Positions 6,593 to 64,000 are shown, counted from the stretch's first letter. The stretch: 64,000 nucleotides of DNA from a virus (IMGVR_UViG_3300032280_000442:160001-224000), one strand, 5' to 3'. Notes: generated by a model from the sequence alone, not told the origin. Made by a program: numbers and translations.

Positions 6593-6637
6593 TTATCTTT
6601 TTAAATAAATAGTTTATACACTATTTTTAAAAGATAA
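6593..6637 (-). promoter_or_regulatory. Inverted repeat enclosing the TATTTAT motif and the translation initiation region
   Basis: TTATCTTTT (6593-6601) pairs with AAAAGATAA (6629-6637), and AAATAG (6607-6612) with CTATTT (6621-6626). Motif at 6605-6611, ATG at 6589. Confidence 0.5.
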
Positions 6638-46524: not shown

Positions 46525-47172
46525 TTATAACATTTTACTTCCTTTTTTTAAATTATCTTCAGCCCATAATGGTTGTAGATTTGTATAATGACAAAGTTTA
46601 TAAATTTCTTCTTCGGTATTTGCCGATGATAATGGAACTATGTGGTCAATATGCCACTCACTTCTAGTATCCCAACTCATACCATCAATAAATTGTTTTT
46701 CTAAATATTCTTTAAGAAATTCCGGAGAACAACCTATAATATCAAATGTATTATTTTTTTTTGTAATATTATTTAGTAACGCGTATTTTCGTAATCTTGA
46801 TGATAAATTTATCTTTAATCTAAATAAAATATCTGTTTTATATTTATTTTTAATATATTTATTTCTTTTTTCTTTATTTTCATCGTCATATTTCTTTTTT
46901 TTTAATCTTATTTTTTCATTATTTATTTCTCGATATTTTCGCATATAATCCGGATTAGACTCTCTTCTTTTTTTTTGTTTTTCTTTATTTTCTGAATGGT
47001 TTTTATAATAACGTTCTGATGACTGTTTTTTTAGTTTTTCTGAATTTTCTAAATAATATTTTTTTTCACATTCTTTACATTGATAATTAAAACCATCTTT
47101 ATTTCTACTTTTTTTAGTGTATTCACAAATATTTTTTTCTTCTTTACACTTACCGCAAATCTTTGTTTCCAT
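46525..47172 (-). CDS. Free-standing HNH endonuclease with N-terminal Cys4 zinc finger (copy 2)
   Basis: METKICGKC...CKEC; WHIDHIVPLSS...HYTNLQPLWAEDNLKK; paralogue of 15322-16050. Confidence 0.85.
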   Translation of the reverse strand: METKICGKCKEEKNICEYTKKSRNKDGFNYQCKECEKKYYLENSEKLKKQSSERYYKNHSENKEKQKKRRESNPDYMRKYREINNEKIRLKKKKYDDENKEKRNKYIKNKYKTDILFRLKINLSSRLRKYALLNNITKKNNTFDIIGCSPEFLKEYLEKQFIDGMSWDTRSEWHIDHIVPLSSANTEEEIYKLCHYTNLQPLWAEDNLKKGSKML

Positions 47173-47361: not shown

Positions 47362-50148
47362 TTAATCAATATATTGTTCCCACCCTTCGGATGCCAAATC
47401 ATAAATATAATTTGGACTCATACCTCGTTTATCCCAATATTTAACTTCCCCATCAGATAAAGTTAATACTTCTTCTAACTTATCTTGGTCCCCATCATTA
47501 AATGGAACACCATTTATAAGTTCAGATTGTTCTTTAGTGAAAAACCCTCTATCTTCAGGATTTGTCACGATTAATTGTTCTCTAACTTCTTCTTTAAATA
47601 CAACTAATAACGGACCGATTCTTTTATTAAATGTTGCAATTGCTCTTGCCACATTATAATCACCTCTCATATCTGGATTGTTCTCAATCTCGGTTTGGTC
47701 TAACATATAACAATTAAGTTGTGTTGTTGAGGTTGATTTATCTTCAGGTTCCTTACCATTCGTTGAAGTAAATAAATCCAATTCTTTTTTGGTATAATTG
47801 TTTTTAGTAATCTTTTGAACATCCCCGTGTGAAGCTTTAATACCATTATTAACATAACTAATCACATCACCCAATGAAACTTTTAAATTGTGTTTGATTG
47901 CGAGTTCCATATGTGCCATTTTACTCATTAACGAACCCGCCTTTGTTTTTTGGCTACATCGTTTTTTATAATCATCAATAGATAATTTAACTTTAGCTCT
48001 CTGAGCAATCTTCATAAGTGGAATATCTTTATCATAGATTTTTTGTAGGTATTCATAATACCACTCAATAAATTCTTGTCCTTTACCTTCCAATAACATT
48101 TTAACCCCCTTGTCTAAGAAGTCCTCAATATATAATGGAAGTTTTTTAGATTTAATGGTGTTTCCGGTTAGTTTAATTTTACCACTCGCCTCCATAACAG
48201 CATAATTCTTACGAGCCAAGTTAATACACGAAGGCCAAGTACCATCGGTATCCAACGCCATCTCACCTCTCATAAACATATCGTTAAACTCGGCAACGTC
48301 AGCATCATCACCAGTGTATTCTTTACCCTCTTTAACTTTCCAATTCAAACCTTTACCAACATAACGTCTGTTCTCCCACCCCTCAGGTTTTGAGAAGTTC
48401 ACACCATCGGTATCCATTACAAGTGGTGTATATCCTTTCTTCATAAAGAACTTAATCATCTGACGAAGATATTGTCTTCCGGTACAAGTAATCTGTTCCC
48501 CCATAAACATATCCCCCCATTCATAAACGTGTGGAGCCGATAACGCCCCAAACATCGAGTTAATGAAAATCTTAATAGGTAATTGTTTTCGGTCATATGA
48601 TAAAGACTTTTTACGGTCAGTTTCATAATATTCCGAAGCCAAGTTTTTATACATAATACGAGAGTTACGGAAATAAGCTAACATACCTTTCATTCCACCC
48701 ATTACATCACACTCAGGGAACACGTCGTGTACCAACTGAATAGAGGGGTATAGAGAAGAGTAATCGAGTTTAAGTACATTGGTGGAGTAACCCACCCTAA
48801 GTAGTCGTGAGAGACCTCCTACGAAGTCAGTTTTATCTTCTTTAGCCGGAATTGCCAAATTGTTTTTATAGGACCAAGCCAACATAATCATTCTCCATAG
48901 AGTTGCAGTTCCCATAGTGGAAACTCTCTCGTAAGTTGTTGGTACCATAGATGCTAATAGAAACGTTCCTTGGTTGAATTCATCATCCACTGTCAACGTC
49001 TCCTCTAAATCGTCGTCAAGATATCTCTCCACAATATTATCTCCTGTAACCTTTAGATATTTACCCGGGAATCTTGTGTCTAAGTTATTAAAATCGGGAT
49101 TATCCGCTTTCTTATATTTTCCATTCTCAACATTTAACCAATATTCCTCTTTTTTAGCATACATTGGTCCAATCTCTAAGTGGTCAATATAAACTCGGTC
49201 GGGAGCCTCAGCTTTAATATATTGAGTAATATATTTAAGACCCGCCGATTTAATACTTGAATTGATTGCTTGAGCTCTACGAACTGAATGAATAATATCA
49301 ATAACATTATAACCCCACAATTGAGTTTGTGAGAATCTTTCTACTTCGTTAGCAAGTTTTAACATACCATCCTTTTGAGAGATAGGTCTTGCCGGGTTTA
49401 GTGATTTAGCAATCTTTTTGATGTCTAAGTTAAGTGCTTTACATCTCTCAAATATCCAAAACCAGTCAAAGTTTGCTGAATTATATCCACCAATGATTGA
49501 TGGTTTAAGTTCATCGATAATATTGAAGAACTCAACTAATCCTTTTCGTTCTTGGTCTTCATCGGCACACTCAATAACTTTTTGATATCCTTTATTGGTT
49601 TTAATTCCAATCATAAATATACGACCATCCTTTGGTTCCAAAGCGGTCGTCTCCAAGTCAAATCCGAGTCGGGTAATATCGTTGTATTCTTCATACCCTT
49701 TGAATAATCTTTTCTCTCTTGAGATAAGGAACTGTTCAACCGGTGGAAGAACCGTTAGTTTCCCTTTTGTTTTTTCACCCCAAGGGTCCACACCACCCTC
49801 TTTAAAGAATTGGATGAGTGAACGATAACCCTTCATTGATTTAACCATAAACTTAAGACCTTTCTCTAATCTTTCATTACCTTTGGTTTCTAACTTATCA
49901 ATGATGATTCCGTGTTTTTTCATTGCTTCTTTTTGTTGGTCTTTAGATTTTGAATAAAAATTCAAATCTCTAAGGTCTCCAACCCAAGCAAATGCCGTAA
50001 ATGTGTCTTTTTTGATTATCTTTCCCTGACCAGGGACTTCTTTGATTTTGTAGATTGCGTCGGTGACGTAATCATACTCGATAGCAACTATGTGCTCTTC
50101 GGGGTCATTCCCTTCAAGGAATGCCTTAATTTCTTCTTGTGTTACCAT
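47362..50148 (-). CDS. polB: DNA polymerase family B
   Basis: Exo motifs FDLET, GYNSANFD and RYLDDD; polymerase motifs LDYSSLYPS, KIFINSMFG and DTDG; no intein. Confidence 0.96.
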   Translation of the reverse strand: MVTQEEIKAFLEGNDPEEHIVAIEYDYVTDAIYKIKEVPGQGKIIKKDTFTAFAWVGDLRDLNFYSKSKDQQKEAMKKHGIIIDKLETKGNERLEKGLKFMVKSMKGYRSLIQFFKEGGVDPWGEKTKGKLTVLPPVEQFLISREKRLFKGYEEYNDITRLGFDLETTALEPKDGRIFMIGIKTNKGYQKVIECADEDQERKGLVEFFNIIDELKPSIIGGYNSANFDWFWIFERCKALNLDIKKIAKSLNPARPISQKDGMLKLANEVERFSQTQLWGYNVIDIIHSVRRAQAINSSIKSAGLKYITQYIKAEAPDRVYIDHLEIGPMYAKKEEYWLNVENGKYKKADNPDFNNLDTRFPGKYLKVTGDNIVERYLDDDLEETLTVDDEFNQGTFLLASMVPTTYERVSTMGTATLWRMIMLAWSYKNNLAIPAKEDKTDFVGGLSRLLRVGYSTNVLKLDYSSLYPSIQLVHDVFPECDVMGGMKGMLAYFRNSRIMYKNLASEYYETDRKKSLSYDRKQLPIKIFINSMFGALSAPHVYEWGDMFMGEQITCTGRQYLRQMIKFFMKKGYTPLVMDTDGVNFSKPEGWENRRYVGKGLNWKVKEGKEYTGDDADVAEFNDMFMRGEMALDTDGTWPSCINLARKNYAVMEASGKIKLTGNTIKSKKLPLYIEDFLDKGVKMLLEGKGQEFIEWYYEYLQKIYDKDIPLMKIAQRAKVKLSIDDYKKRCSQKTKAGSLMSKMAHMELAIKHNLKVSLGDVISYVNNGIKASHGDVQKITKNNYTKKELDLFTSTNGKEPEDKSTSTTQLNCYMLDQTEIENNPDMRGDYNVARAIATFNKRIGPLLVVFKEEVREQLIVTNPEDRGFFTKEQSELINGVPFNDGDQDKLEEVLTLSDGEVKYWDKRGMSPNYIYDLASEGWEQYID

Positions 50149-50246: not shown

Positions 50247-50275
50247 AAAAAAACCCTCCTTTTTAGGGGAGGGGT
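50247..50275 (-). terminator. Intrinsic terminator ending the mucin-like/protease operon
   Basis: Minus strand CCCTCC-loop-GGAGGG-TTTTTTT. Confidence 0.75.
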
Positions 50276-50283
50276 ATGTTTTA

Positions 50284-52497
50284 TTAAATAAAATAAGTTG
50301 AGTTTTTATATAACAATGTGTTGGTGTTTAAATCATAACTAAAAATTAAAAGTGAGTCCCCATTATTAATAGATGTGTAAATATTATAAATATTTAATGT
50401 TGTTACTTCTGTACCATAAGTCCAAGCATATTTTACGTAACTTTTGACACCATAATACATACCAGTATATTTATAACTTGAAAAATCACAAGTTTGTGCG
50501 GACAATGATGGTATTATTGTGTAACTATCTCCCGACATTGGGATTGTGTCATTTACTAAATCGGTTAATCTTAAAAATGCTGACCGTTGTAGTAGTGTGG
50601 GACCTGAAGTGATTTTAACAAGTTTTGAGTAGTCAGAAATTGGATTTAATTTTTTCGCACCAACATTACTATAAAAGTTATATTGATTACCTGACGCTAT
50701 TGAAATATTATTAACAGCGTTAACTCCCGTCTCCGCATTACTTAAACATCTTAAATCACACTCATTAAAAGTAATTCCTAAAGTCATTAATGGCATAGTA
50801 ATGTTTAAAAAATAAAAATTACCCGTAATACCTGTTGTTACAACACTTGATGTGTGAATTGAATATTGAGCAACATTATTTGCATCAGAGGCACAAGTTC
50901 TATCAGGGTCATTAGATGGTATTATAGGGACAACTAAAGAAAAATAACGATAATAGTTAATATTTGTATTATCAAATGGGGTTCCTAATCCATATCTTAA
51001 AACGTTATTTAAATATGATTGATAATATAATTCTAAATCCGACAAATATTGAAATTGCATATTAATGTTTCCGGGCCCACCTACAGTGGCGTTTGTTTTA
51101 TTAAAACTAATGAACCCACCTGGTGCTCCATCACAATTATATGGAGATTGTGAACACGAGGAATTATCCTCAGCACAAACTGTATAATTACCACAAAACG
51201 ACGAACCACTACTATCAATCGAATTATAAGAAATTTGTCCATTCAGAGATGAACATATCCCATAAAATTCAGAGTTTAATGCTGCGGGTGCGGCTATTGA
51301 CGAACTCTGTGTTAAATATTTGAAAATATCACTACTTTCTAATACGCTATTAGTACATCCAGACAGATTCGAATTAAAACTATATTGACCACACACTAAT
51401 GAAGTTATACTCACACTTGAATCAATAAATTTATAAGGCGCTAATGAATCTAAACAGGTTTCACAATTAAAAGTGTTTAAACATCCAAAATATATTTCCC
51501 AATTAGTTCTACTTATGTTAGGGTTAGGTGTTATCTCAATTGTTAAAAAATCATTTTCAGTTCTTAATAATTTACTAATGTTTGTCACCTTTTTAAAAAA
51601 ACCGTTAGTAGCAACTTTTATTACTTTTGGGGTAACAAAAACATTAAAATCAGTAAATTCATCTCCGACAATATAATACTCTAAAACAATCGGTGTTGGG
51701 TAATTACCTCCATTAAAACTTATTTTTATAGTGTCACTAACAGTATATGCTCGGAATTGCCAAGCAAAATAATTAGTATTTATATCTAAATCAAATCCCA
51801 AAGATAATGATTCAGGGGGTGTATTAAACGCGGCAGTATTTGAAAAATAATAATTATTATATCCGGAGTAAAGATAAACAGGTTCTACCCTATTCCCTGA
51901 ACAAATTGACGGAAACACTTCAACTGTCTGATTCGACAAACAATTAATGTTTGCTTGGACAAATCCTGTCCCACCTGTTATTGAATAATTAATATTGTTA
52001 ATTCGTATTTGTCTAATCATTGGAATATAATATCCCGGTAAAGATATTCTATTAAATGGGTGTGTTTGTTGATAGGGTCCAAATAATGTTCCAAAACCTG
52101 AGGTAAAGGCGATTGTTGTATTATTCTCGGGTCCATACCAATCAATTAGGTAATCGGTTATATTTGCACCAACAGAGCTAACTAAAAGTCCTGCAATAAT
52201 TTGACTAACTGTTGTGGATGAAAAATTAGATAACTGAATTCCAAATAAATCACATAAGTTATTTGGTGATATTGGAAGGTTATAACAACAATGAGACACA
52301 ATATCTTGAAATTTAATTTCTGTAGTTCCGTCAGGTATATTAGTCAAAATATATGGACAATTTGATGTTAATAGAGAAAGAGATATATTTGTTTGAAACG
52401 GTACCGAGTAACTATCCGAGTTAGAATAAATATCTACACTACTACCTAATGGTAATGTTCCGGTATTAGTTAAACAAATTGATGATGAAAATGGCAT
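50284..52497 (-). CDS. Cys/Asn/Ser/Thr-rich hypothetical protein (putative virion appendage)
   Basis: 737 aa, beta-rich composition; last gene of the operon starting at 59083. Confidence 0.65.
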   Translation of the reverse strand: MPFSSSICLTNTGTLPLGSSVDIYSNSDSYSVPFQTNISLSLLTSNCPYILTNIPDGTTEIKFQDIVSHCCYNLPISPNNLCDLFGIQLSNFSSTTVSQIIAGLLVSSVGANITDYLIDWYGPENNTTIAFTSGFGTLFGPYQQTHPFNRISLPGYYIPMIRQIRINNINYSITGGTGFVQANINCLSNQTVEVFPSICSGNRVEPVYLYSGYNNYYFSNTAAFNTPPESLSLGFDLDINTNYFAWQFRAYTVSDTIKISFNGGNYPTPIVLEYYIVGDEFTDFNVFVTPKVIKVATNGFFKKVTNISKLLRTENDFLTIEITPNPNISRTNWEIYFGCLNTFNCETCLDSLAPYKFIDSSVSITSLVCGQYSFNSNLSGCTNSVLESSDIFKYLTQSSSIAAPAALNSEFYGICSSLNGQISYNSIDSSGSSFCGNYTVCAEDNSSCSQSPYNCDGAPGGFISFNKTNATVGGPGNINMQFQYLSDLELYYQSYLNNVLRYGLGTPFDNTNINYYRYFSLVVPIIPSNDPDRTCASDANNVAQYSIHTSSVVTTGITGNFYFLNITMPLMTLGITFNECDLRCLSNAETGVNAVNNISIASGNQYNFYSNVGAKKLNPISDYSKLVKITSGPTLLQRSAFLRLTDLVNDTIPMSGDSYTIIPSLSAQTCDFSSYKYTGMYYGVKSYVKYAWTYGTEVTTLNIYNIYTSINNGDSLLIFSYDLNTNTLLYKNSTYFI

Positions 52498-52522
52498 AAA
52501 ATATTTTGTTAATTTTGTTTAT

Positions 52523-53782
52523 TTAGTTTAAATAAGGTGATAGTCCTACTTGCCAATATGTTTTACCATCGACAATAATTGTCTTATTAGGACTACCTCC
52601 AGGGGTTATTACTTTTTCAATAGTTGACACCGTATCTTTAGGTGTTCCATCCCAAGCTTGGATACCTAATTCAAAGGCAACATTATCTATTCTACAAGCA
52701 TATCCAAATTGACCAATTTGAGTTGTTGAACCGGGAACTTGAGATGACCCAGCAAAATTTAATCCAATTATTTTATAAACACCGTCAAAATCCGCAATAA
52801 GGACAGAACCGGAATCACCACCATAAATTGGGAAATTACAGCTCTCGCTTAATCTAGTAAACACAATTAAATCATTATACGAAATTACCCTACCAACACC
52901 TTGTAAAGGATACGAACCAACGTCCGCAGTTGCACCTAAAAGTTTTATTTTTAATCCACAATCACCAGATTTTACACCTGATGTTCTACCACTACTTAAA
53001 ATTGTTCTTTGGGTAACTAGTAAACTATCTATTTCAGCTGTTGTTGCAAATGGCATTGGTTGACTATAATTAATACCTAGTTGAGTAAAAGATGTTGTGT
53101 CACTAACAGTATTAGCACATAATGAAACTAATGCACCGTCTACAGTGTTTAATTCAGGTTGACTCTTTAATGGTACATATCGAATAACTTCACCAATTTG
53201 ATTACCAACAACAGGTGTCGATATTTCTCCATTTTGATACGCTATTGATTTGTATTCGTTTACAATTGGACCTGATAGATTTCTGGCACTAGTATATGAT
53301 GCGTCTTGAATAACTACGTGATTATTAGTTAGACCTACAAGTTTTTGACTTAAACTATCCACAACAATTAAACCTAATGTCCCAACAGACCCTAATAAAC
53401 GTTGAGCGGTTAATGATATACCACCAACTAATGGTCTAAGTGTGTTTCTATTAGGAGGGTTAACAGACCCTAATGGACTCCAAGTATAACAATTTGGGGC
53501 AATTAAAGGGTTATCACAAATAGGGTAATCAATCATTGGGACAACTTCTTCAATTTCAAGAACATCTGTTCTATAGATTGTTCCACTAATTTCAACAAAT
53601 TCCGGTAAACGTTCATCAAATGGAATCTCATTTAACGGTCTCTTTTTTGGAACTGTAAAAACAATTGATTTATCAGGTGTTTCAACACCCTTAATTGTTT
53701 TATGACCATACGCGACACCAACATAATTAGGTGTGTTTTGATATAATTCGTTTAATTTATTTTTTATCTCTTGTGTTAACAT
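52523..53782 (-). CDS. Trypsin-like serine protease, Nal1-like
   Basis: Catalytic triad TNNHV / VDGAL / GDSGS; N-terminal VGVAYGHK...IVFTVPKK...TDVLE domain as seen in Nal1-type proteases. Confidence 0.82.
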   Translation of the reverse strand: MLTQEIKNKLNELYQNTPNYVGVAYGHKTIKGVETPDKSIVFTVPKKRPLNEIPFDERLPEFVEISGTIYRTDVLEIEEVVPMIDYPICDNPLIAPNCYTWSPLGSVNPPNRNTLRPLVGGISLTAQRLLGSVGTLGLIVVDSLSQKLVGLTNNHVVIQDASYTSARNLSGPIVNEYKSIAYQNGEISTPVVGNQIGEVIRYVPLKSQPELNTVDGALVSLCANTVSDTTSFTQLGINYSQPMPFATTAEIDSLLVTQRTILSSGRTSGVKSGDCGLKIKLLGATADVGSYPLQGVGRVISYNDLIVFTRLSESCNFPIYGGDSGSVLIADFDGVYKIIGLNFAGSSQVPGSTTQIGQFGYACRIDNVAFELGIQAWDGTPKDTVSTIEKVITPGGSPNKTIIVDGKTYWQVGLSPYLN

Positions 53783-53800
53783 AATTAGTTGTTTTTTATA

Positions 53801-55759
53801 TTATTCAATATGAACCCATATTGTGTAAACTGTGTTATCCGGTGTATTTGTTGGTGTTGGTGTTGGTGTCCCTGTTGGTCTTGGTGATGGAAGAATTATT
53901 GGGTCCGATATTATATAAGTATATCCTGATATATTACAATTAATACACACCTCACCACTTGGTGAAGGAGTGATTGTTGGTGTAAGTGTTGGGGTTGAAG
54001 TATTTGTCGGTGTTAAAGTTGGAGTTTCTGTAACTGTTGTTGTAGGGGTAACTGTTGAAGTATTTGTTGGTGTTAAAGTTAGTGTTGATGTCGGAGTAAG
54101 AGTTGGTGTTGATGTAACTGTCGGTGTAGGTGTTACAGTTGGAGTTACTGTACTTGTTATAGTTGGGGTTGGGGTTGGGGTTGGACAAACTATAGAGTAT
54201 TTAACATTACAACTATTACAATTACCTTCATTATTTAAAATAATTGCCGTTGTATATCCTGTCGAAACCTGTGTCTCATTAATTGCACTTGTACATCCCG
54301 TATATCCAATAGTTTGTACATAATAAGACTCACCAACAGTTACTGGTTGAACCAATGAACCAATTTTAAATTTTATATTACTATCACAACAATCTTGGAA
54401 ATAACCAATAATTGGAGGTAATGGTGATGACGTAACAGTTGGTGTTGGTGTTAGTGTTGGTGTTTGTGTTACAGTTTGAGTTGGTGTTGGTGTCGTAGTT
54501 GATGTTTGAGTAACTGTTGGCGTTTGAGTTATAGTTTGAGTCGGGGTTTGAGTTATAGTTTGAGTCGGGGTTTGAGTTGGTGTTGGCGTTGATGTTGGCG
54601 TTGATGTTAATGTATTTGTAGGTGTTACAGTTGGTGTTACGGTAGCCGTTGGTGTTGGTGTTGGTGTTGGACAATCAATTAATCTTACACTAAAGTAAGT
54701 GTCTGTAGATAAACAAGTACATCCTGATGTTGGAGGTAGTGTTGAAACCCATTCGGTATAATCACCAACAGGATATTCCGAATTAATGAATAATTTAGAA
54801 CATTGTTCATTTGTGTCAGTATTTTTAACAACCCAACAAACTTGAATATTATCCCAATATAATATAAAAGGGTTACCATCAATTATTCCGGTCCAATATT
54901 TTTTACCATTAATCAATTCATTTCCTTGAGTAGGATAGTTATAAGTCCCACAACCAGATTCGTTAGTTATTTGTAAACAATAATTTGTTGCGGGTGTTTG
55001 AGTCATTGTTGGAGTTGGTGTTGGAGTTTGTGTTGGTTGAATACATTCACCGTTTACGGTGTACCTACCCGGACCGGATACTATCACAATACCATAATAA
55101 CATTCCGCACAAACGGTAAGAGTATTTCCAGGTATTGTATCTGTTACATCTATAAAAACGGTAACAGGTGTTCGTTCACCACAAGGAATGTAACTAAATT
55201 CAGTATATCCACGTCTACCTAAACCACCATCTAAGGTATAACTTTGACAACCTTTACAATTAGTTTGTGTTGGTGTTGGTGTTGGTAGAGGATTACAAGG
55301 ATAATCTTCCAAACATTTTTCACAACCTTCACCATATGAAATACCCGACCAAGTAAATGTTGGAATACTACCTTTCGGTGCAAAACCTGTAATTGTCATA
55401 CATAATTTACTTGTGGTTAATATAGTTTCCCCAATATTAAAAGTTGAGGGTAATATTATAACACCTGAAAGTCTACTACAACAAGATAATACATTGTAGG
55501 CCAAATTTCTTATTTTTGGCGTTGGCGTTGGTGTAGGTGTAGGTGTTGACGTTGGTGTTGGGCAAGGAATTACTAAGTCACAATATTTATCATATTTTAG
55601 TATGTAAATTTGAAATGTTCCATAATAATAATCATTATCATAATAATAAGGTAATATGACTTGACCTAGATTTATACTTCCCCCTGAACAAGGGAAAAAG
55701 GTAATGGCGGCCAATTGTCCGTTATAGTTTGTTGTCGTTATTTCTAAAAATATTCCCAT
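53801..55759 (-). CDS. Mucin-like Thr/Pro-repeat protein with Cys-rich domains
   Basis: Several TPTP/QTPT tracts (longest ~85 aa) separated by domains with CC...C...CxxC...C spacing. Confidence 0.8.
54522..54578. repeat. 24-bp exact tandem repeat within a Thr/Pro tract
   Basis: GTTTGAGTTATAGTTTGAGTCGGG twice plus a partial copy; encodes PTQTITQT. Confidence 0.85.
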
Positions 55760-55771
55760 ATTGTTTTATTA

Positions 55772-58700
55772 TTATGATTGTGTTGTTAAGCAAATAGCCA
55801 ATGTAATACCTGATAATTCACCAACACCCGCAATAGTTATTTGATTATATGGGGTGTTAGAGTTAACCGAAATTAACGCACTACCACCATTAGGTGTGTC
55901 ACTAACATAAGTTAATGATACAGAATTTCCATTTATTGTAACCCCACAAGACGTACCACAAATAGATAGTGTTGGAGTTCCCCCGTTAGTTCCAAAAGTG
56001 TATGTTTCAATACTACTTGGTTGAGAGGTACGACCACCTTGAGACATTAAAAATTTAATATTATTAACAGGTTGATTAAAATTTAAAGTATATGTAAATA
56101 ATCCAGGATTAAACCCTATTATTAATGTATTCGAAGGTGTAATATATGAGGTACAATTTGATTGTGCTGGTACGGTATTCAATGGTATTAATGGACCACT
56201 ATATGTGGTAGTAACTGTCAAACCATTAACTGTTAAACTACCTACACCACTATTAGGTAAAGCATATGTGATACAATAAGGACAAGTTTGTGTTGATGTT
56301 ATAAATGTTACGTTATTACAACTTGGTACCTGTGATGCACCTGACACTGCCCTTCCAATGTTATTAATTAATGTAATTGTATACGGGAATACCGTGTTTA
56401 TTCTATAAATGTCAGGTCCATTAGTAATATAAATACCACCATCTATTGTCGCAAGACCAAAAGGTGTTAGTGTTGGGATACTAATTTGTTTATCAAATTC
56501 TAATACCCAAGTATTACCATTTAAACTATATTGAGAAATGTATGAATTATAAACACCACTTGTATAAGTTGTTAAAATAATTTTACCATTTGTTGTGTAT
56601 AGTATATCCCCGGATATTAACCTTCCTGTAGGTAAAGTAAATAATGTTTCCGATGTGGCTATATTATTTGAATTTAATGTTAATTTAATTATTAAATTAC
56701 CCGTGCTACTAATTAGTTGTGTATCATTAATGGCAGCTAAACCATTTCCTAATGGAACACCTGAATTTATCGCTCTATTATATGTTTTAGTAAATGGACT
56801 CAAAGTTATGTTCCACTCATAAATAAGTAATCCCGCATATAACCATAATTTATTGTTGGTATGAGCAATATCTGAAGATGTAGATGGTTGAGGTGGACTA
56901 GGGTTAAATAATAATGTTGAAACATTAGTTGTTAAATTATAAGAATAAACTTTACCAATTTCTGGCTGATTTGGAGCATCAACATATATAACCGAACATT
57001 GAGGTACCACTATCGCACCTTGTGTTTGAGTAGGTGTTGGAGTTAGGGTAGGTGTTTTGGTTTGAGTTATTGTTGGAGTTTGAGTCGGTGTTAATGTTTT
57101 AGTTGTTGTTGGCGTAGGTGTTAGTGTTGTAGTTGATGTCGGTGTTTTAGTCGTAGTCGGAGTTGGTGTAACTGTTAGTCCAATAGTTCTTGTTGGTGTA
57201 GGTGTTTTGGTTTGAGTTATAGTGGGAGTTTGAGTTGAAGTTTTTGTTATAGTTGGAGTTTGAGTTGGTGTTTTAGTTGGAGTAACCGTCGGTGTTGTTG
57301 TTGGTGTTGAAGTTGGTGTAGGACTTAATGACACAGTTTCAAATTCAAAATCGCAAGACAATGATGTAACCGTCGGTGTTGGTGTAGTTGTAGGTGTTGG
57401 GGTTGGAGTTGGAGTAAGACAAAGAGTATCAGTATTATTAAAACAAGTATTACAATCTTCTTGTTTAATTAATCCAACATATGCGTAAGCTAAATTAGGT
57501 CTATTTTGCGGAACAATTACTGTCGCGCAACCATTAAAACCAGAACTTTGAATATAATACGTACCTTCATAAGCAATACCCAATGAAGGTGCTCCATAAA
57601 TAATAAAAATGTTTGACCTATCACAACAATCAACAAAAGATACCGGAATTGACGGTAACGGAGTCCCTGTCGGTGTTGGTGTATTAGTTCGTGTTGGTGT
57701 TGGAGTTCTAGTGACAGGTATAACATTATACGTTATTGTATTTGAAATAAATGAAGGACAATCATTACTAAACTGTTGAATATAAAAATATATTGTTGGT
57801 GGTAATGTACCCGGTATTGTAATACTTCTTGGTGATGAGCAACCTCCCGCACTACTATTCCAATTAACATTATCCACAGACCAATACACTAAAATTGTTC
57901 CACAAGGTCCTGTAACATTAAAATACAATAAAAATGTATTACCACCACTATTTAATACTGTTTGTAAAATCGGTGCTTGACAATTCTTTGTTTGTGTTGG
58001 TGTTGGTGTTGGAGTTATTAAACAAGGATTTGGTGTTGATGTTGGAGTTGGTGTTGGAGTTACTTGAATAACATTACACGGATATTTTGAAAGACAATAA
58101 CTACAGTTTTTATAAATTGACACATTAAAAGCTATAGTTTCTGTACATTCTAATACATTAAAATCTTGAATCACATAACATACACCATCACTACCTAAAA
58201 TACCTACTCCGACAGCCGCACCAATATTTGATGGGATTCCTGTCATACACTTTTGTTTATCGTCACAACAACTTATAACATTTGCAGACAATTTTCTTGG
58301 TCTTGGTCTTGGCTCTATGGGGTCAATAATAACAGGACCACCAATAACCGGAACATTATCATATTGTGAATCCCCATTATCTGTTAATATGATATCAGAA
58401 AATAATGTATATAAATTTAATCTATTAAAATCATCATCAATAATAAGTTCTGTTATACCCTCTTTACTACCAGTATATATTGAAACTGACGAATTTATTA
58501 TAATTGGGTCACCTGTAGTAACACCTAATACATTTTTAAATGTAACGGTAATGTCGGTATCCACAGGATATCTTGATGTTGCAGTATATAACACACCAAT
58601 AGAACTTGGATAATACTGAGGAACAATAGTAATTGTATTTTCATCAGGATTATCAACAATATTTGGATTCCCACAACAAGGGAATGTTGAGGTATAACAA

Positions 58701-59083
58701 GTGTTATATTCTAAATCGTCAGCAATAAACGATTCTTGTACATATATGTATAACTTTTCTCTAATTGGTAATATAACATTACCGTCAAATGTCTTAACTA
58801 AAAACTGACCCTCATATCTACCTTCAATACTAGTATCTTGTTTGGTAAATTGATAGTAAATATAATATTCTGGCTCAGCATTTGGGTCATCAAATATTTT
58901 TTCAACAAAACCTCCCGGTCTTGAAGTTATCTTAGGAATCCCTGTTTCAGAATTAACCATAGAAAAGAAAATTGTAGAAGTTTCCAATAATTCCATAAAA
59001 TTATTGTAATCACTTCTACCATCTTTTACTACTTGTAATTTTAATAGGGGTAAGGTTGCGTTTTTCTTTATAAAAAATTCCAT
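55772..59083 (-). CDS. Mucin-like Thr/Pro-repeat protein with BppU-like N-terminal domain and C-terminal beta-rich (propeller-like) region
   Basis: MEFFIKKNATLPLLKLQV...YYQF..QDT...GRYEGQF...ILP resembles BppU N-terminal virion-attachment domains; ~100-aa Thr/Pro tract; two CCD Cys-rich domains. Confidence 0.75.
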   Translation of the reverse strand: MEFFIKKNATLPLLKLQVVKDGRSDYNNFMELLETSTIFFSMVNSETGIPKITSRPGGFVEKIFDDPNAEPEYYIYYQFTKQDTSIEGRYEGQFLVKTFDGNVILPIREKLYIYVQESFIADDLEYNTCYTSTFPCCGNPNIVDNPDENTITIVPQYYPSSIGVLYTATSRYPVDTDITVTFKNVLGVTTGDPIIINSSVSIYTGSKEGITELIIDDDFNRLNLYTLFSDIILTDNGDSQYDNVPVIGGPVIIDPIEPRPRPRKLSANVISCCDDKQKCMTGIPSNIGAAVGVGILGSDGVCYVIQDFNVLECTETIAFNVSIYKNCSYCLSKYPCNVIQVTPTPTPTSTPNPCLITPTPTPTQTKNCQAPILQTVLNSGGNTFLLYFNVTGPCGTILVYWSVDNVNWNSSAGGCSSPRSITIPGTLPPTIYFYIQQFSNDCPSFISNTITYNVIPVTRTPTPTRTNTPTPTGTPLPSIPVSFVDCCDRSNIFIIYGAPSLGIAYEGTYYIQSSGFNGCATVIVPQNRPNLAYAYVGLIKQEDCNTCFNNTDTLCLTPTPTPTPTTTPTPTVTSLSCDFEFETVSLSPTPTSTPTTTPTVTPTKTPTQTPTITKTSTQTPTITQTKTPTPTRTIGLTVTPTPTTTKTPTSTTTLTPTPTTTKTLTPTQTPTITQTKTPTLTPTPTQTQGAIVVPQCSVIYVDAPNQPEIGKVYSYNLTTNVSTLLFNPSPPQPSTSSDIAHTNNKLWLYAGLLIYEWNITLSPFTKTYNRAINSGVPLGNGLAAINDTQLISSTGNLIIKLTLNSNNIATSETLFTLPTGRLISGDILYTTNGKIILTTYTSGVYNSYISQYSLNGNTWVLEFDKQISIPTLTPFGLATIDGGIYITNGPDIYRINTVFPYTITLINNIGRAVSGASQVPSCNNVTFITSTQTCPYCITYALPNSGVGSLTVNGLTVTTTYSGPLIPLNTVPAQSNCTSYITPSNTLIIGFNPGLFTYTLNFNQPVNNIKFLMSQGGRTSQPSSIETYTFGTNGGTPTLSICGTSCGVTINGNSVSLTYVSDTPNGGSALISVNSNTPYNQITIAGVGELSGITLAICLTTQS

Positions 59084-59119
59084 CTAAAGTTTTTATTATA
59101 AATACTTCATAATACGGAA

Positions 59120-60796
59120 TTAGCTTTCTTTTCTTAAAGAACCATCATAATGTTCAAATCGATTATGTTCCGTTGGTGTTAGTAATAACAAACCGGGTTT
59201 AATATTACCTTTAACAGTTTCCTGATAAGCGTAAGACATAAGTGTTTGTTCAAAAGGGTGAGCCCATTTAGTTTCTAAATAACATTTATAATTACCTTGT
59301 TTTGTTAAGACAATTGGCCAATTACATAAATAAATTTCACCTGATACATATGGTAATCCGTTATGAATATTAACCTCATTAAATTTTGTTCTTGGTGAAT
59401 TTGGGTCTAACCCTTGTACAGGTAGTTTTGAGTTATTAGGCCAATGTGATTGTCTAAAATCTTGAGGGACATTATACCAACTCCACTGAACACTATTATC
59501 ACCAAAAAATTCACTAAAATTTAATTTTAAAAAATCAAAATTTTCTTTATCAACAATCTCTAACGATTTTTGATATAAATTATCGACAAATCTTGGGAAT
59601 CCATTTCTACAAACTTCTCCTTTACTAAGATAAAATGCCATATCATCTTCAAACCACCAACAAAAATCTAAACCAGTTTCATCAAAATGTTCGGCAACAA
59701 ATACTCTACCTCCAACAATACCAATGTTATCTTTCTTAATATGTTCAAAACCATATTGTTCACATAACTCAATATATCTTGGCGTTGTAGATAAATCTGT
59801 TGAATTGTCCAATAAAAATTTTCTTGGTTTTTCAATAAAATCTTTATCATAATCTAACATTGATTGAATTAAAACTTCTAATTGTTTTGGTGAGTTAAAT
59901 GTTATAATATAAAGTCCAACTTTTGAATCATCCAAATTATTTATAACAACATCTTTTGACACCTCAGATTTAACTTCAACTGTCATATCTTTTAAATCTT
60001 CAAAAAATTTACCCATTAAACCATTACCCTCAATTTCAGAATAGGTAATAAGATTAGGATATTTGTATGTCATAATTGTAAATAAAGACTCTTCAGTTCC
60101 CATTAAACCATTTGAAAGAGTTTCATTCATTAGTCCGTAATAGATACTGTTAATTTCAGATATAACATTTTTTTTACCACCAAAGAAACCTGCTCGAGCA
60201 ACCATATTAACTTGTTTTCCGGCTAAATCACATAACTCTTGGTATTTGAATCCGTGAATCTCACTATTAGCTTCGTAAGGAAAACAAACAAAATGAAAGT
60301 TTTTAACTAATTGTGGTAATTTGTCTAAAACTTTGTCGTGTGTGAAGTATCCGGGATGGATTGTGTTTGTTAAACCTGCGTCAATCCAAAACATATATTC
60401 CGAATTAAACTTATCTAAAATTTTAGCATCGTGTAACAAATAAACTTTAGACATAACTAAAGGATTATACATCTCTAATTTAGCCTGTGTTGATTCTGTT
60501 AACCAACCAACTTGATTATACCAATCAGGATTAGTCCTAATTTTTTGTATTTTATCGTATAATTCATTATTCTTAAACCAAGATAAATCTCTACGAATAA
60601 ATTGTGTATTATCGTCGCGTCTATTATTAAAAACAAATTTTTCTAATTCTTCATCACCAAATATTATCATATTCACATCAACTTGTAATAGTTGTTGGAA
60701 TTTATCTAAATAATGTTGGAATGAACGAGACCACCCTTCTTGAAGGTCTCCTCTACCAATATCCCATAATCCGGTTACTAATGTTATATTATTCAT
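59120..60796 (-). CDS. Two-domain glycosyltransferase-like protein: HtrL/YibB-like + GT-A (GT2-like)
   Basis: N-terminal ITLVTGLWDIGR...YNPLVMSK...FWIDAG...AGFFGG...TEES; C-terminal YIITFN...LLDNST...NIGIVGGR...FEDDM. Confidence 0.78.
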   Translation of the reverse strand: MNNITLVTGLWDIGRGDLQEGWSRSFQHYLDKFQQLLQVDVNMIIFGDEELEKFVFNNRRDDNTQFIRRDLSWFKNNELYDKIQKIRTNPDWYNQVGWLTESTQAKLEMYNPLVMSKVYLLHDAKILDKFNSEYMFWIDAGLTNTIHPGYFTHDKVLDKLPQLVKNFHFVCFPYEANSEIHGFKYQELCDLAGKQVNMVARAGFFGGKKNVISEINSIYYGLMNETLSNGLMGTEESLFTIMTYKYPNLITYSEIEGNGLMGKFFEDLKDMTVEVKSEVSKDVVINNLDDSKVGLYIITFNSPKQLEVLIQSMLDYDKDFIEKPRKFLLDNSTDLSTTPRYIELCEQYGFEHIKKDNIGIVGGRVFVAEHFDETGLDFCWWFEDDMAFYLSKGEVCRNGFPRFVDNLYQKSLEIVDKENFDFLKLNFSEFFGDNSVQWSWYNVPQDFRQSHWPNNSKLPVQGLDPNSPRTKFNEVNIHNGLPYVSGEIYLCNWPIVLTKQGNYKCYLETKWAHPFEQTLMSYAYQETVKGNIKPGLLLLTPTEHNRFEHYDGSLRKES

Positions 60797-62459
60797 ATAT
60801 GTTGTTAAGTTCTGTTAATATTTTATAAAAACTTCTATTTTTTTTAACGTGTTCCGCCATATCAGTTCCGGCAATTCTTTCGTCTTCGTGCCACCAAGTT
60901 TCAAAATAATAATTGTAAAATAATTCAGGATGATTTCTAAACATTAATGTTATAATATCTTCCTCGTGGTATAATCGTTTATCGTGTTCAGAAACCGTAT
61001 AAACATAATTTCTAAATAATTCAATAATTGGGTCCCATAATTCTTTTCTACCACCAAACATTCCACCAATAATGTGAATACTTCGATTATAATCTATAAA
61101 ATGTATTGGATTTACCGTTCCTGACCAAAAATTTCGTTCATTCTCTTTTCCGATAAGAGTAAATTTGTCACCTGTAGTTTTAATTAAATTATTTAAAAAT
61201 AGATTATTAAATAATGGACTTTCATAATAACCTTGATTATGAGGTCCGGTTAGTGAAAGATGTTTATTTGGAATTAAACCACAGTGAGATAATCCAGCAT
61301 CAATCCAAAAATAGTAATCGTAAGATTTATCTTCATTTAAAAACCAAATAAATTTCATATATTGAATTTCAATACATCTATCTCCTCTCTTAATGCCTTC
61401 AATATCTTTATATTGATTAATTATTTCAGAAAATTCATTATCATATAGATTAAATTTAACTATTTGTAATTTTTCTCGACTAATATTATTTTCTTCGTAA
61501 AAAAATTGTTCTAAACCATCAAATTCCTCATCTGAAGTATAACAAATGAAATCGGCATTAGTCATTTTTAATATTGATAATAAACTCCATCGATAATGTC
61601 CGTGACGATTTGGTCTTCCACCTAATTCAGTTCCATATAAATTAGAATAAATTGCAGTAATAAATTTAACACTATACTCCGATTCAATATCTAATGATGG
61701 TAAATCAATTTCTAATGGTTGAAATATTGGTTTTAAAATTTTAGTTTCTTTTTTAATTAAATTTTCGGGGTATTTTTTTTCATTTTCACAATAACCCATA
61801 TCATAATATAAACCACTAATTTTGTTTTCAGTATATAAATTCCAATTATATGTAATCATATAATGATTATTATCGTTTGTTTGATTAATATCAGAAAAAC
61901 CACCTCTTTGAGTAATTACAGGTAATGACGTTGAATAACATTTAAAGTTTGAAAACACATCTTCATCAAGATATTGGTCTATTGCTTTTTGACTTTCTAA
62001 CTTGAATTTTAAGATTTCTTCACCAAATTTACGATTTATTATATAACACGCTAAATTATAAATCCCTCTATGATGAGGTTCTTTTTCAGGTAAATTAGAC
62101 AAATCCAATAAATTTTCAGAATAGTTGTTTACAGGTCTATTTAAACTAGGACCTAAATGAAAAAAATCCCATTCAATATTATTTAGTTCATTTAAAGATT
62201 TTTCTAATTGAGTTTTAGCATAAGGCATAAAGAAACAATCATCTTCGAGTATCATTATATATTCATCATTAGAATTTATAAAATCCTCAACAATTTTTAA
62301 ATGTGATAACGCACAACCATCATAACCTCCTTTATCAATACCTTCAAAAATTTCATAATCCCAACCAATATATTCCATTTCACGATTAAATTCTTCTAAT
62401 CTGTCTGTCCTACGTTTAAGATTTATTACAACTTTTCTAATATTATTAATGTCCACCAT
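60789..62459 (-). CDS. Two-domain glycosyltransferase-like protein: GT25 + HtrL/YibB-like
   Basis: N-terminal VINLKRRTDR...FEGID...GCALSH...ILEDD (GT25); C-terminal FITAIY...QYMK...FWIDAG...GGMFGG...EED. Confidence 0.82.
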   Translation of the reverse strand: MVDINNIRKVVINLKRRTDRLEEFNREMEYIGWDYEIFEGIDKGGYDGCALSHLKIVEDFINSNDEYIMILEDDCFFMPYAKTQLEKSLNELNNIEWDFFHLGPSLNRPVNNYSENLLDLSNLPEKEPHHRGIYNLACYIINRKFGEEILKFKLESQKAIDQYLDEDVFSNFKCYSTSLPVITQRGGFSDINQTNDNNHYMITYNWNLYTENKISGLYYDMGYCENEKKYPENLIKKETKILKPIFQPLEIDLPSLDIESEYSVKFITAIYSNLYGTELGGRPNRHGHYRWSLLSILKMTNADFICYTSDEEFDGLEQFFYEENNISREKLQIVKFNLYDNEFSEIINQYKDIEGIKRGDRCIEIQYMKFIWFLNEDKSYDYYFWIDAGLSHCGLIPNKHLSLTGPHNQGYYESPLFNNLFLNNLIKTTGDKFTLIGKENERNFWSGTVNPIHFIDYNRSIHIIGGMFGGRKELWDPIIELFRNYVYTVSEHDKRLYHEEDIITLMFRNHPELFYNYYFETWWHEDERIAGTDMAEHVKKNRSFYKILTELNNIYE

Positions 62460-63706
62460 TATAAATTACCTGTTATTCTATCACACCAACCTTTTGACTT
62501 ACTAAATGGCCAAACAACCCAGTATTTTGGTTTATGAACTGTTTGGAAATCTCTCCAAACTTTACAATACCCATCAGGGTCATTCATCATCATATTGATT
62601 TCATTGATGTCAGCATCTTTTCTAAAGATTGTTTCATCATTTTCATCGTGAAATGCTACAACCCAAAAATCATAATCTTTTTCCGGAACTTGATGAAATC
62701 CAATATCAATACAGTGTTTAAAGATACTGGCATAACTTGCCAACCATTCTTCCTCAGTTTCAAATATTTGAGGGTTAGGTGCATAATGTTTATCTAAAGT
62801 ATATTGTTGAACAGCTCTATTTGAAAATTTAAGACCTGAATAAATTTCATAATCTCTTAAAGTTCTTTCAGTTCCAAAACCATAATAACTAAAATCCAAA
62901 GTAACTTCTTCTCCGTCCATACCAAATAATTGACGATTTTTCTTATGAGATAATTCATTTTTCTTACCCCACTCTTTATCATCATCCCATTGTTTAGTTC
63001 TACCCTTACGAGTATATTCGTGCCAAATAACGGTTTTGTGTGGATGGAATAAATCATATCCGTGAGTGAATGCCCTAACGGCGATAGATATTTCTTCTCC
63101 GTGAAAATAAAACTCAGGGTCGTGTTGAACCTCAACACTAAATTGTCCTAATGTAAATGCCATATGGGCAGAATAAAATCGTGAAGTAACCGGTTCGGTA
63201 AGTGTTTCCCATCCCGGAATTGTTTCAGGTAAGAAGAATACAGCACCTTCAGGAATGAATCTATCAAAAGCCATTCTCCAAGGCTCCTTAACTCTACCTG
63301 CCGGGTCATTGTCCGGGTCAAATGATGATACATATCCCGTCAATAAAGGTTTCTTAAATCCTTTCTTTTGAAGTTGTTTAATCATTTTAATTAAGGTATC
63401 GTCCCAATCCTTTTCAAATCTCATATGAGAATCAATTTGTAAAGTATATTCTTCACCTTTATATAATTGTTGAACTTGATTTCTTGCCCAACAAACACCT
63501 TTTGACTCTGTATATAAGACATCAATAACTCTAAAACGTTTGTCACCTTTGAATTCGTCTAAGTTATCAAACCCATCTTCAGGATGGTATTGACGACAAA
63601 TTCCGATTATTAAATTTTTTGGCTTTTTAGCATTTTCCAACATAGATTTAATTGTTGGGATAAGTTGGGGGTCACGATAGGACGCAATTTGGACAAATAT
63701 TTTCAT
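62459..63706 (-). CDS. GT60-like polypeptide N-acetylglucosaminyltransferase (Gnt1/Skp1 GlcNAc-transferase family)
   Basis: IFVQIASYRDP, GVCWAR, LQIDSHMRF (DSH metal motif), FHGEEISIAVRAFTHGYD and IWHEY. Confidence 0.85.
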   Translation of the reverse strand: MKIFVQIASYRDPQLIPTIKSMLENAKKPKNLIIGICRQYHPEDGFDNLDEFKGDKRFRVIDVLYTESKGVCWARNQVQQLYKGEEYTLQIDSHMRFEKDWDDTLIKMIKQLQKKGFKKPLLTGYVSSFDPDNDPAGRVKEPWRMAFDRFIPEGAVFFLPETIPGWETLTEPVTSRFYSAHMAFTLGQFSVEVQHDPEFYFHGEEISIAVRAFTHGYDLFHPHKTVIWHEYTRKGRTKQWDDDKEWGKKNELSHKKNRQLFGMDGEEVTLDFSYYGFGTERTLRDYEIYSGLKFSNRAVQQYTLDKHYAPNPQIFETEEEWLASYASIFKHCIDIGFHQVPEKDYDFWVVAFHDENDETIFRKDADINEINMMMNDPDGYCKVWRDFQTVHKPKYWVVWPFSKSKGWCDRITGNL

Positions 63707-63710
63707 TTAA

Positions 63711-63751
63711 TATCTTTTTATTAAAAAAATAATATTTTTTATAAAAAGATA
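63711..63751 (-). promoter_or_regulatory. Inverted repeat occluding the translation start of the glycosyltransferase operon
   Basis: TATCTTTTTAT (63711-63721) / ATAAAAAGATA (63741-63751) plus an inner A6/T6 stem; TATTTAT motif at 63749-63755. Confidence 0.5.
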
Positions 63752-63759
63752 AATAGAAA

Positions 63760-63999
63760 TTATATACCACCGTCGGTTATTGTCCAAAATTTTGGTGCCG
63801 CTTGAAGTATTGCTTTTCCTGCCGAACCGGCTGCAGTATATTTAATTGTGTTAAAGGTAATATTTATTCCTGATTGAACAGATGGTAACGAACTCCAACC
63901 ATTGTATATCGCATTCAAGTTTGTTGTTGAATAATCACTAAACGTTTTATCCGCCATAAAATTGGTGAAATTTGTAACACCACTAACATTCCAACCACC
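63760..63999 (-). CDS. C-terminus of a DUF285/BspA-like repeat protein (5' end truncated)
   Basis: The frame extends to the window end: GGWNVSGVTNFTNFMADK...LNAIYNGWS...WTITDGG, typical of the WnVSxVTn repeat and its C-terminal cap. Confidence 0.7.
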   Translation of the reverse strand, partial: GGWNVSGVTNFTNFMADKTFSDYSTTNLNAIYNGWSSLPSVQSGINITFNTIKYTAAGSAGKAILQAAPKFWTITDGGI

Positions 64000-64000
64000 A

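Follow-up and report, generated by a model that had tools for sequence, protein, structure and literature searches.

Known virion and mucin-type glycosylation systems

Glycosyltransferase family 60 (GT60) includes the Skp1 hydroxyproline N-acetylglucosamine (GlcNAc) transferase and the polypeptide alpha-GlcNAc-transferases that initiate mucin-type O-glycans in Dictyostelium and Trypanosoma cruzi, and all of the characterised GT60 enzymes put GlcNAc on polypeptide, either on threonine or serine of mucin domains or on hydroxyproline of Skp1 (PMC8724618, PMC6939170). In T. cruzi gp72, the glycans are on a domain of the PTVTPT type (PMC3630849). Here we describe a GT60-family gene (P0001) that leads a row of seven genes in a phage genome, next to genes for proteins with long tracts of threonine and proline (Thr/Pro or TP tracts). 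The row lies at 50284-63706 of a 64,000-nucleotide stretch (the window), which is bases 160,001-224,000 of the IMG/VR record IMGVR_UViG_3300032280_000442; we give positions on the window unless we name the genome. The full record is 308,574 bp with direct terminal repeats, is rated complete, has a GC content of 31.5%, and contains 372 genes.

Like the protist enzymes (Dictyostelium Gnt1, the Golgi pp-alphaGlcNAcT, and the T. cruzi OGNT), P0001 belongs to PF11397 and has a DxH-type motif, and it is soluble, as is the cytoplasmic Gnt1. The Thr/Pro-rich sequences that we propose as its acceptors resemble the mucin domains of Dictyostelium and T. cruzi. Furthermore, multi-domain transferases and fucose take part in the extension of the Skp1 and Dictyostelium glycans, and the phage encodes GDP-6-deoxyhexose and GT11-type enzymes. 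In contrast to the protist enzymes, P0001 is encoded by a bacteriophage, has no prolyl hydroxylase partner and no Golgi, and carries an extra C-terminal domain of about 115 amino acids; and its partners are of the HtrL/WlaTC type and GT25, instead of the GT2/GT74 enzyme PgtA of protists.

Freeman and colleagues reportedly described virion glycosylation in the mycobacteriophages Che8, Corndog, and Myrna in 2023. Similar to our phage, the mycobacteriophages encode cytoplasmic transferases next to structural genes, and for these the O-glycosylation of virion proteins is either presumed or demonstrated. However, those transferases are from other families, they act on capsid and tail-tube subunits at short C-terminal extensions rather than on long mucin-like fibre linkers, and the hosts are Actinobacteria. 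Giant viruses (the chlorovirus PBCV-1, with Vp54, and Mimivirus, with its fibrils and R655/R699) are also similar, in that they combine multi-domain soluble transferases with viral nucleotide-sugar enzymes: PBCV-1 and the phage both have a GDP-mannose dehydratase, and the model of P0002, which is encoded next to P0001, matches Mimivirus R655 and R699. But the hosts of giant viruses are eukaryotes and the linkages are different (PBCV-1 has atypical N-glycans), and we know of no description of GT60 paired with Thr/Pro tracts in a giant virus.

The first-pass annotation of this locus knew of nothing comparable in phages, which was an overstatement. In the study of XacN1, a cultured jumbo phage of Xanthomonas, Schiff staining revealed at least two glycoproteins in the virion, and two phage glycosyltransferases, ORF328 and ORF334, were suggested as their makers (PMC5852040). 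We found that ORF334 is a homologue of GT60. XacN1, Xoo-sp13, and the Stenotrophomonas phages CM1 and RAS14 all resemble our phage in having a GT60 protein (46-49% identity) and a full-length homologue of P0003, the third transferase of the row (39-43% identity), in one operon (ORF334-ORF330). For XacN1 itself, these identities are 48% and 42%. These phages also have a Thr/Pro-tract protein; in XacN1 and RAS14, the tracts are in giant proteins that adjoin the baseplate genes. In contrast to our phage, they have a carbamoyltransferase in place of GT25, and their Thr/Pro protein is encoded about 9 kb off, by the other strand. Neither the GT60 identity nor the link to Thr/Pro tracts was recognised in the work on XacN1, and our literature search for GT60 in connection with phages found no paper. 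Compared to the virion glycosylation that is known from phages and giant viruses, what is new about the locus is the enzyme family, the proposed mucin-like substrate, and the variable cassette (described below), but the kind of system is not new.

A GT60 enzyme and two two-domain transferases

The first three genes of the row, whose open reading frames (ORFs) overlap by 1 and 8 nucleotides, encode about five domains of glycosyltransferase type, as first annotated:

62459-63706, minus strand: P0001, a GT60-family glycosyltransferase of 415 amino acids (PF11397, E 1.4e-69; phrog_24687, E 1e-167) with no transmembrane segment
61896-62459, minus strand: GT25 domain of P0002 (556 amino acids, gene 60789-62459; PF01755, E 2e-16, 60.7 bits, cut-off 24)
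60792-61727, minus strand: HtrL-like second GT-A domain of P0002 (from profile-profile comparison and model matches)
60017-60796, minus strand: HtrL_YibB (WlaTC/HtrL) domain of P0003 (558 amino acids, gene 59120-60796; PF09612, E 2e-21, 77.7 bits, cut-off 24.1)
59123-59941, minus strand: GT2/GT-A-like C-terminal domain of P0003 (weak matches)

The assignment of P0001 to GT60 is well supported. Its match to PF11397 (GlcNAc) scored 235.7 bits, as compared to a family cut-off of 21 (and 195 bits in the genome scan). The DSH motif is at residues 92-94 (D92-S93-H94; nucleotides 63425-63433) and is of the DxH type, as in the ppGalNAc-transferases of GT27. In an alignment of P0001 with ten homologues at 30-49% identity, QxDSH, GEE, and further positions are invariant across all 11 sequences. 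No solved structure was retrieved from the PDB with the GT60 sequence as the query. From family membership, we propose that P0001 is the initiating polypeptide N-acetylhexosamine (HexNAc) transferase.

P0002 and P0003 each have two domains, which agrees with the initial description of multi-domain elongating enzymes. Residues 258-519 of P0002 align to the HtrL domain of P0003 (hhalign, 97.8%, E 9e-13). A BLASTP comparison of the C-terminus of P0002 to the N-terminus of P0003 was not significant (E 0.06), so this kinship is visible by profiles only. When we compared the AlphaFold model of P0002 (pLDDT 83) to other structures using Foldseek, the matching enzymes (human LH3, COLGALT1, Mimivirus R655 (24% identity) and R699, and LARGE1) each contained a pair of GT-A domains. 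The model also matches bacterial beta-1,4-GalT. In relatives, the HtrL-like domain of P0002 is found alone or is fused to GT7C, sulfotransferase, or CmcI domains.

P0003 scored 76.6 against the NCBIfam equivalog for YibB, below the cut-off of 264.9, so we consider the HtrL domains of P0002 and P0003 to be members of the family and not orthologues of YibB. (NCBIfam otherwise adds nothing.) The C-terminal domain of P0003 is probably GT2-like. Its weak matches are to a TET-associated glycosyltransferase (TAGT; E 0.034) and, by profile comparison, to a GT2 dolichyl-phosphate-mannose (Dol-P-Man) synthase (E 0.09). Pfam gives no match to GT2 in P0003 itself, and PF00535 (GT2) is matched, at any place in the protein, by 7 of 56 P0003 homologues. 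The Atlas neighbours are mostly GT2.

The relatives of P0003 link it to GT60. A search of 1.8 billion representative proteins yielded 1,001 relatives (217 below E 1e-30), most of which have both domains. Among 56 diverse relatives that we scanned with Pfam, HtrL was found in 55 and a fused GT60 domain in 7; other fusions were to FkbM/TylF methyltransferase, carbamoyltransferase, sulfotransferase, GT2, and GT17 domains. Similarly, 10 of the 150 listed homologues, which are metagenomic, have a GT60 domain, either N-terminal or C-terminal to the HtrL/GT2-like part. These fusions argue for a single pathway in which both GT60 and the HtrL/GT2-like enzyme take part. Other phage lineages have one or two GT60 genes beside an HtrL enzyme, a carbamoyltransferase, an epimerase, and methyltransferases.

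Proteins with Thr/Pro tracts

As expected from the first annotation, two proteins with Thr/Pro tracts (windows with at least 70% T/S/P) are encoded directly downstream of the transferases and on the same strand. The remaining four genes of the row, and the gene directly upstream of it, are:

55772-59083, minus strand: 1103-amino-acid fibre-like protein with an immunoglobulin-like (Ig-like), BppU-N-like start (residues 1-120), Cys-rich modules between Thr/Pro tracts, and a large C-terminal domain
53801-55759, minus strand: 652-amino-acid Cys-rich modular protein, one third of it Thr/Pro tract (main tracts 54407-54676 and 53954-54196)
52523-53782, minus strand: 419-amino-acid protease-like protein (phrog_20754, which is annotated as a protease, E 1e-14; no Pfam match)
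50284-52497, minus strand: 737-amino-acid Cys/Asn/Ser-rich protein, the last in the row (no Pfam or PHROG family found)
63760-64000, minus strand: 3' end of a 981-amino-acid protein with a Thr/Pro tract and DUF285 repeats, directly upstream of GT60 and continuing past the edge of the window (genome 223760-226705)

In the 1103-amino-acid protein, 192 residues are in tracts (the main one is at 57020-57427), and in the 652-amino-acid protein 219 residues are. The tracts are encoded by degenerate repeats of 6-36 nucleotides. Eleven ORFs in the genome have Thr/Pro tracts, and five of these are within 12 kb of GT60. For the 1103-, 652-, and 737-amino-acid proteins, Pfam and PHROGs give no family beyond one PHROG for the Thr/Pro tract. 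By eye, the 419-amino-acid protein has the His/Asp/Ser motifs of a chymotrypsin-type fold. Elsewhere in the genome (139,371-142,259), the end of a 962-amino-acid Thr/Pro-tract protein is formed by a domain of Hint/intein type (Intein_splicing, E 1.6e-4, which is below the cut-off; a C-terminal THN was seen by eye). This suggests that this fibre-like protein cleaves itself.

The start of the 1103-amino-acid protein had been described as a BppU-like attachment domain; the likeness is seen in structure comparisons but not in Pfam, which reports no family at E <= 1 (BppU included) for residues 1-130 or 1-280. The modelled start is an Ig-like sandwich, and its best match among solved structures is the N-terminus of BppU from TP901-1 (4v96, Z 8.4, rmsd 3.2 A, 100 residues), followed by 3uh8 (Z 7.6), with antibody V domains close behind (Z 7.3-7.5). 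Among the viral models in BFVD, the matches include several proteins annotated as "BppU domain" (E 3e-5 to 7e-4), baseplate component, or tail fibre. In relatives, residues 1-120 are conserved (59-98% identity) and the C-terminal remainder is variable, a pattern that is typical of fibres with an attachment domain. The start of this protein likely has a role in virion attachment.

Co-occurrence of GT60 and Thr/Pro tracts

We compared the locus to a close set of 84 relatives, in which GT60 is 77-96% identical, and to a second set of more distant viral loci. A collection of 2.9 million contigs yielded 399 GT60 loci in one scan and at least 591 in another. The counts below are not corrected for common descent.

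All 84 of the close relatives have an ORF with a Thr/Pro tract within 10 kb of GT60. In most of them, the order is a Thr/Pro protein, GT60, a variable cassette of 0.85-9.8 kb, the P0003 homologue, and the BppU-like Thr/Pro protein. Because this order is conserved around the stretch of 0.85-9.8 kb, we consider the middle of the locus to be strain-variable and its flanks to be fixed, and the stretch between the GT60 and HtrL/GT2 genes looks like a cassette for glycan diversity. In some of these phages, the GT25+HtrL-like gene is missing from this stretch and six small genes stand in its place.

The gene directly upstream of GT60 encodes a Thr/Pro tract in 68 of the 84 close loci, as compared to 86 of 621 other genes of those loci. 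For the distant viral loci, these counts are 22 of 85 and 32 of 584, and for bacterial genomes they are 5 of 70 and 10 of 582. A Pfam search of the Thr/Pro-tract neighbours of bacterial GT60 genes found no common family. On contigs from Sphingomonas and Novosphingobium, two or three tandem GT60 paralogues directly follow a protein of about 1200 amino acids, so that bacterial GT60 is beside a Thr/Pro-tract protein; this protein has two Pro/Thr-rich tracts flanking a hydrophobic segment and a C-terminal Rv2525c-like domain that resembles glycoside hydrolases.

We also read the proteins of six GT60-positive genomes (our phage, XacN1, RAS14, and three complete genomes without a local Thr/Pro gene), and all six encode large Thr/Pro-tract proteins. 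A strict (TP)4 DNA pattern had overlooked the TxP-type tracts in three GT60-positive genomes, and reading the proteins revealed them. In the reverse direction, among 33 viral contigs of at least 35 kb that were picked solely for a (TP)6 tract, 9 have GT60, which is far above its frequency in the collection.

Sugar genes and membrane proteins elsewhere in the genome

The search of the rest of the genome for nucleotide-sugar genes and a prolyl hydroxylase, which the first-pass annotation had put forward as a check, gave a split result. A second glycan island is on the plus strand 18 kb away (genome 241,984-257,680, or 81,984-97,680 on the scale of the window). It encodes a double GT2 enzyme (a fusion of Glyco_tranf_2_5 and GT2), a GT25, two GT11 (fucosyltransferase-type) proteins, an FAD oxidoreductase, a Gfo/Idh/MocA oxidoreductase, a DUF6492 protein, a DegT aminotransferase, a GDP-fucose-synthase-like epimerase, and a GDP-mannose 4,6-dehydratase (E 3e-118), followed by PhoH and another GT2. 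In contrast, a search of the genome for prolyl hydroxylase (PF13640) found no match, which favours threonine over hydroxyproline as the acceptor.

A hydropathy scan of the 372 genes found no polytopic membrane protein and no flippase-like protein, and none of the transferases has a membrane segment. This argues against a lipid-linked polysaccharide pathway that is run by the phage.

Expression of the gene row

The seven genes all run in one direction on the minus strand, from 63706 to 50284, and neighbours overlap or lie 12-36 nucleotides apart. The candidate signals are:

63759-63786, minus strand: sigma-70-like promoter match upstream of GT60 (TGGACA-16-TATAAT, 11/12), the best in the region and a consensus match only
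63749-63755, minus strand: copy of TATTTAT upstream of the GT60 gene
50254-50273, minus strand: terminator-like GC hairpin with a T-run, directly 3' of the 737-amino-acid gene, closing the row

The short gaps, the promoter-like site, and the terminator fit with the row being one transcription unit.

The motif TATTTAT does precede both gene blocks, as had been noted, at 14 nucleotides 5' of the 1103-amino-acid gene and 42 nucleotides 5' of GT60. However, we rejected the accompanying idea that it marks structural or late genes as a class. Across the genome, 102 of the 289 copies are within 80 nucleotides upstream of a gene, with a peak 10-20 nucleotides before the start codon, and the 93 genes that they precede (about a quarter of the 372) include DnaB and helicase genes, that is, replication genes. 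So, TATTTAT is a general start-proximal motif, and from its placement it is a candidate -10-like promoter element or leader element of the phage or its host. The window contains 54 copies versus 61 expected, which is not above chance. Relative to the gene, 102 of the upstream copies are in forward orientation and 51 are in reverse; examples in the window are at 6605, 31399, 33212, 34158, 40883, 42251, and 59098 (minus strand).

A proposed function and its alternatives

The most likely reading, to which we give about an even chance, is that the Thr/Pro linkers of virion fibres are O-glycosylated in the cytoplasm, with GT60 starting the glycan and the neighbouring multi-domain enzymes extending it. 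The seven-gene row would then be a module for virion fibres that brings along the cytoplasmic enzymes for O-glycosylation. Building on the observed domain identities, gene order, fusions, and co-occurrence, we infer the acceptor, the sugar, the timing, and the location in the virion as follows. Late in infection, soluble GT60 would place a HexNAc, most likely GlcNAc from UDP-GlcNAc, on threonines of the Thr/Pro tracts that join the Cys-rich modules of the fibre-like proteins. The sugar would be extended by the bifunctional GT25+HtrL-like and HtrL+GT2-like enzymes, and probably further by enzymes from the second island (GT2, GT25, the two GT11, the GDP-mannose dehydratase, the epimerase, and the aminotransferase). 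The outcome would be stiff, protease-resistant linkers on baseplate-attached fibres, coated with strain-specific glycans. Also in favour are the lack of membrane segments in the transferases, the fit of the row with one transcription unit, the BppU-like anchor, and, indirectly, the Schiff-positive virion proteins of XacN1, which has GT60 and P0003 homologues.

Several points weigh against this proposal. The phage is known from sequence alone, so that its glycans are a prediction, and the Thr/Pro proteins do not match any virion-annotated family in Pfam or PHROGs. The BppU-like match is barely above generic Ig folds, and the promoter motif does not tie the row to the late class. Shared ancestry inflates the co-occurrence counts, and some counts go the other way: about 35 of 77 distant GT60 loci (~45%) have no Thr/Pro gene inside 10 kb, most bacterial GT60 loci lack one, and 5 of 6 complete phage genomes that were chosen for a (TP)6 tract have no GT60. 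Thr/Pro tracts are common linkers. We conclude that the association between GT60 and Thr/Pro tracts is real, yet neither universal nor exclusive; the predicted co-occurrence was found, but exclusivity was not.

These same counts would also be explained if the enzymes glycosylate virion or other phage proteins outside of the tracts (the capsid, the sheath, folded fibre domains, or a single Skp1-like target) and the tracts are plain flexible linkers. Consistent with this, passages of PMC12619734 cite mycobacteriophage glycans on the C-termini of capsid and tail-tube proteins, and the proteins in the glycoprotein bands of XacN1 were not named. Against it, all six of the GT60-positive genomes that we read encode Thr/Pro-tract proteins, direct adjacency of a Thr/Pro tract to GT60 is enriched 4- to 6-fold over other genes, and the characterised GT60 enzymes other than that for Skp1 use Thr-rich mucin-type domains. 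We consider a target outside of the tracts to be unlikely. We assign only a small chance to the transferases acting on host envelope glycans or their cytoplasmic precursors (the core of lipopolysaccharide or lipooligosaccharide (LPS/LOS), O-antigen, or capsule), for instance to block superinfection or to change the surface. The GT25, HtrL/YibB (WlaTC), GT9, and GT11 families are familiar above all from the synthesis of LPS/LOS and are typical of those loci, which is another point against our proposal, and in relatives, carbamoyl-, methyl-, and sulfotransferases lie beside the module, as in the decoration of polysaccharides. But the genome offers no candidate for a lipid-carrier transferase, flippase, or polymerase, lipid-linked glycans are not among the known acceptors of GT60, and the module is among the fibre-like genes of apparently lytic jumbo phages. 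Also, phages of very different hosts (Xanthomonas/Stenotrophomonas and the 31% GC lineage) share the module, which argues against a host-specific glycan as the acceptor.

We think it very improbable that the target of the enzymes is phage DNA, hypermodified with sugars as an escape from restriction. The idea draws on the TAGT match of the C-terminus of P0003 (which is stronger in one homologue, at 8e-4), on a thymidylate-synthase-family gene in the genome that could in principle be a hydroxymethylase, and on DNA glycans made by phage transferases (Pyle 2024, as cited in a passage of PMC12619734). A search for TET/JBP (PF12851) found no match, albeit with no positive control; the dUMP-type Asn is, by eye, retained in the ThyA-like protein, whose gene is 170 kb away; GT60, GT11, and the GDP-6-deoxyhexose pathway are not known from DNA modification; and the genes are amid fibre-like genes and not replication genes. 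(The thymidylate-synthase-family gene, at genome 48,716-50,731, is in pieces of 109 and 312 amino acids that are split by a gene for a GIY-YIG-like endonuclease of 240 amino acids, an arrangement that recalls the td intron/homing layout of T4.)

The phage and its likely host

The source is an uncultured freshwater jumbo myovirus, with a tail sheath (35968-39555), a baseplate wedge protein, ribonucleotide reductase, a DnaB-type helicase, and a family-B DNA polymerase (PolB; 47362-50148). The nearest matches of PolB are from Salinibacter phages, at just 23% identity. We considered whether the phage is a relative of XacN1 and rejected this, because PolB has no match there at E < 1e-20; what the two have in common is the transferase module only. 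No match was found when the whole region was compared to the phage collection at the DNA level.

Several phage proteins contain SprB repeats, DUF285 repeats, or the Fibrobacter major domain. Furthermore, the closest GT60 homologues in metagenome-assembled genomes (MAGs) from GTDB are on low-GC contigs that were binned with Saprospiraceae, Cytophagaceae, Arcticibacterium, and other Bacteroidota. These are probably phage contigs that were binned together with their hosts, and so they hint at the host. Because of these domains and the homologues in Saprospiraceae and Cytophagaceae MAGs, the host is likely a member of the Bacteroidota.

Two other features of the window are on the minus strand. The tail sheath protein has 1195 amino acids, but the sheath families match residues 897-1193 only, so that roughly 900 residues at the N-terminus make up additional domains. 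Between the PolB gene and the plus-strand helicase-like genes, a Lys-rich ORF of 215 amino acids (46525-47172) has, by eye, an HNH-type endonuclease C-terminus and is probably a homing endonuclease.

Implications

A broader reading takes in the bacterial enzymes as well: the GT60 of phages and of many bacteria would initiate true mucin-type O-glycosylation in the cytoplasm, placing HexNAc on threonines of fibre- or adhesin-like Thr/Pro tracts; a hypervariable cassette would build strain-specific glycans; initiation would predate the eukaryotes; and a lineage that ranks among the most abundant freshwater jumbo phages would wear a variable fibre coat. We hold this view tentatively and think that it is somewhat doubtful as a whole.

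So far, mycobacteriophages are the main case in which glycosylated phage particles have been demonstrated, with a hint of them in XacN1, and the locus supplies a concrete hypothesis for an enzyme and its substrate. This can be tested with the cultured relatives (XacN1, Xoo-sp13, CM1, and RAS14) or with recombinant proteins. The lineage is very common in lake metagenomes, with over 7,000 clusters of GT60 proteins at E <= 1e-10 and the 399 loci in IMG/VR. If the proposal is correct, then phage fibres would carry dense and variable O-glycans, which could affect host recognition, protease resistance, grazing, and the stickiness of the virion, and the locus, with its conserved flanks and variable middle, would be a generator of glycan diversity that is comparable to O-antigen loci. 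The family that initiates mucin-type glycans in protists would also have a prokaryotic and viral counterpart that acts on similar Thr/Pro sequences, which would bear on the origin of mucin-type O-glycosylation.

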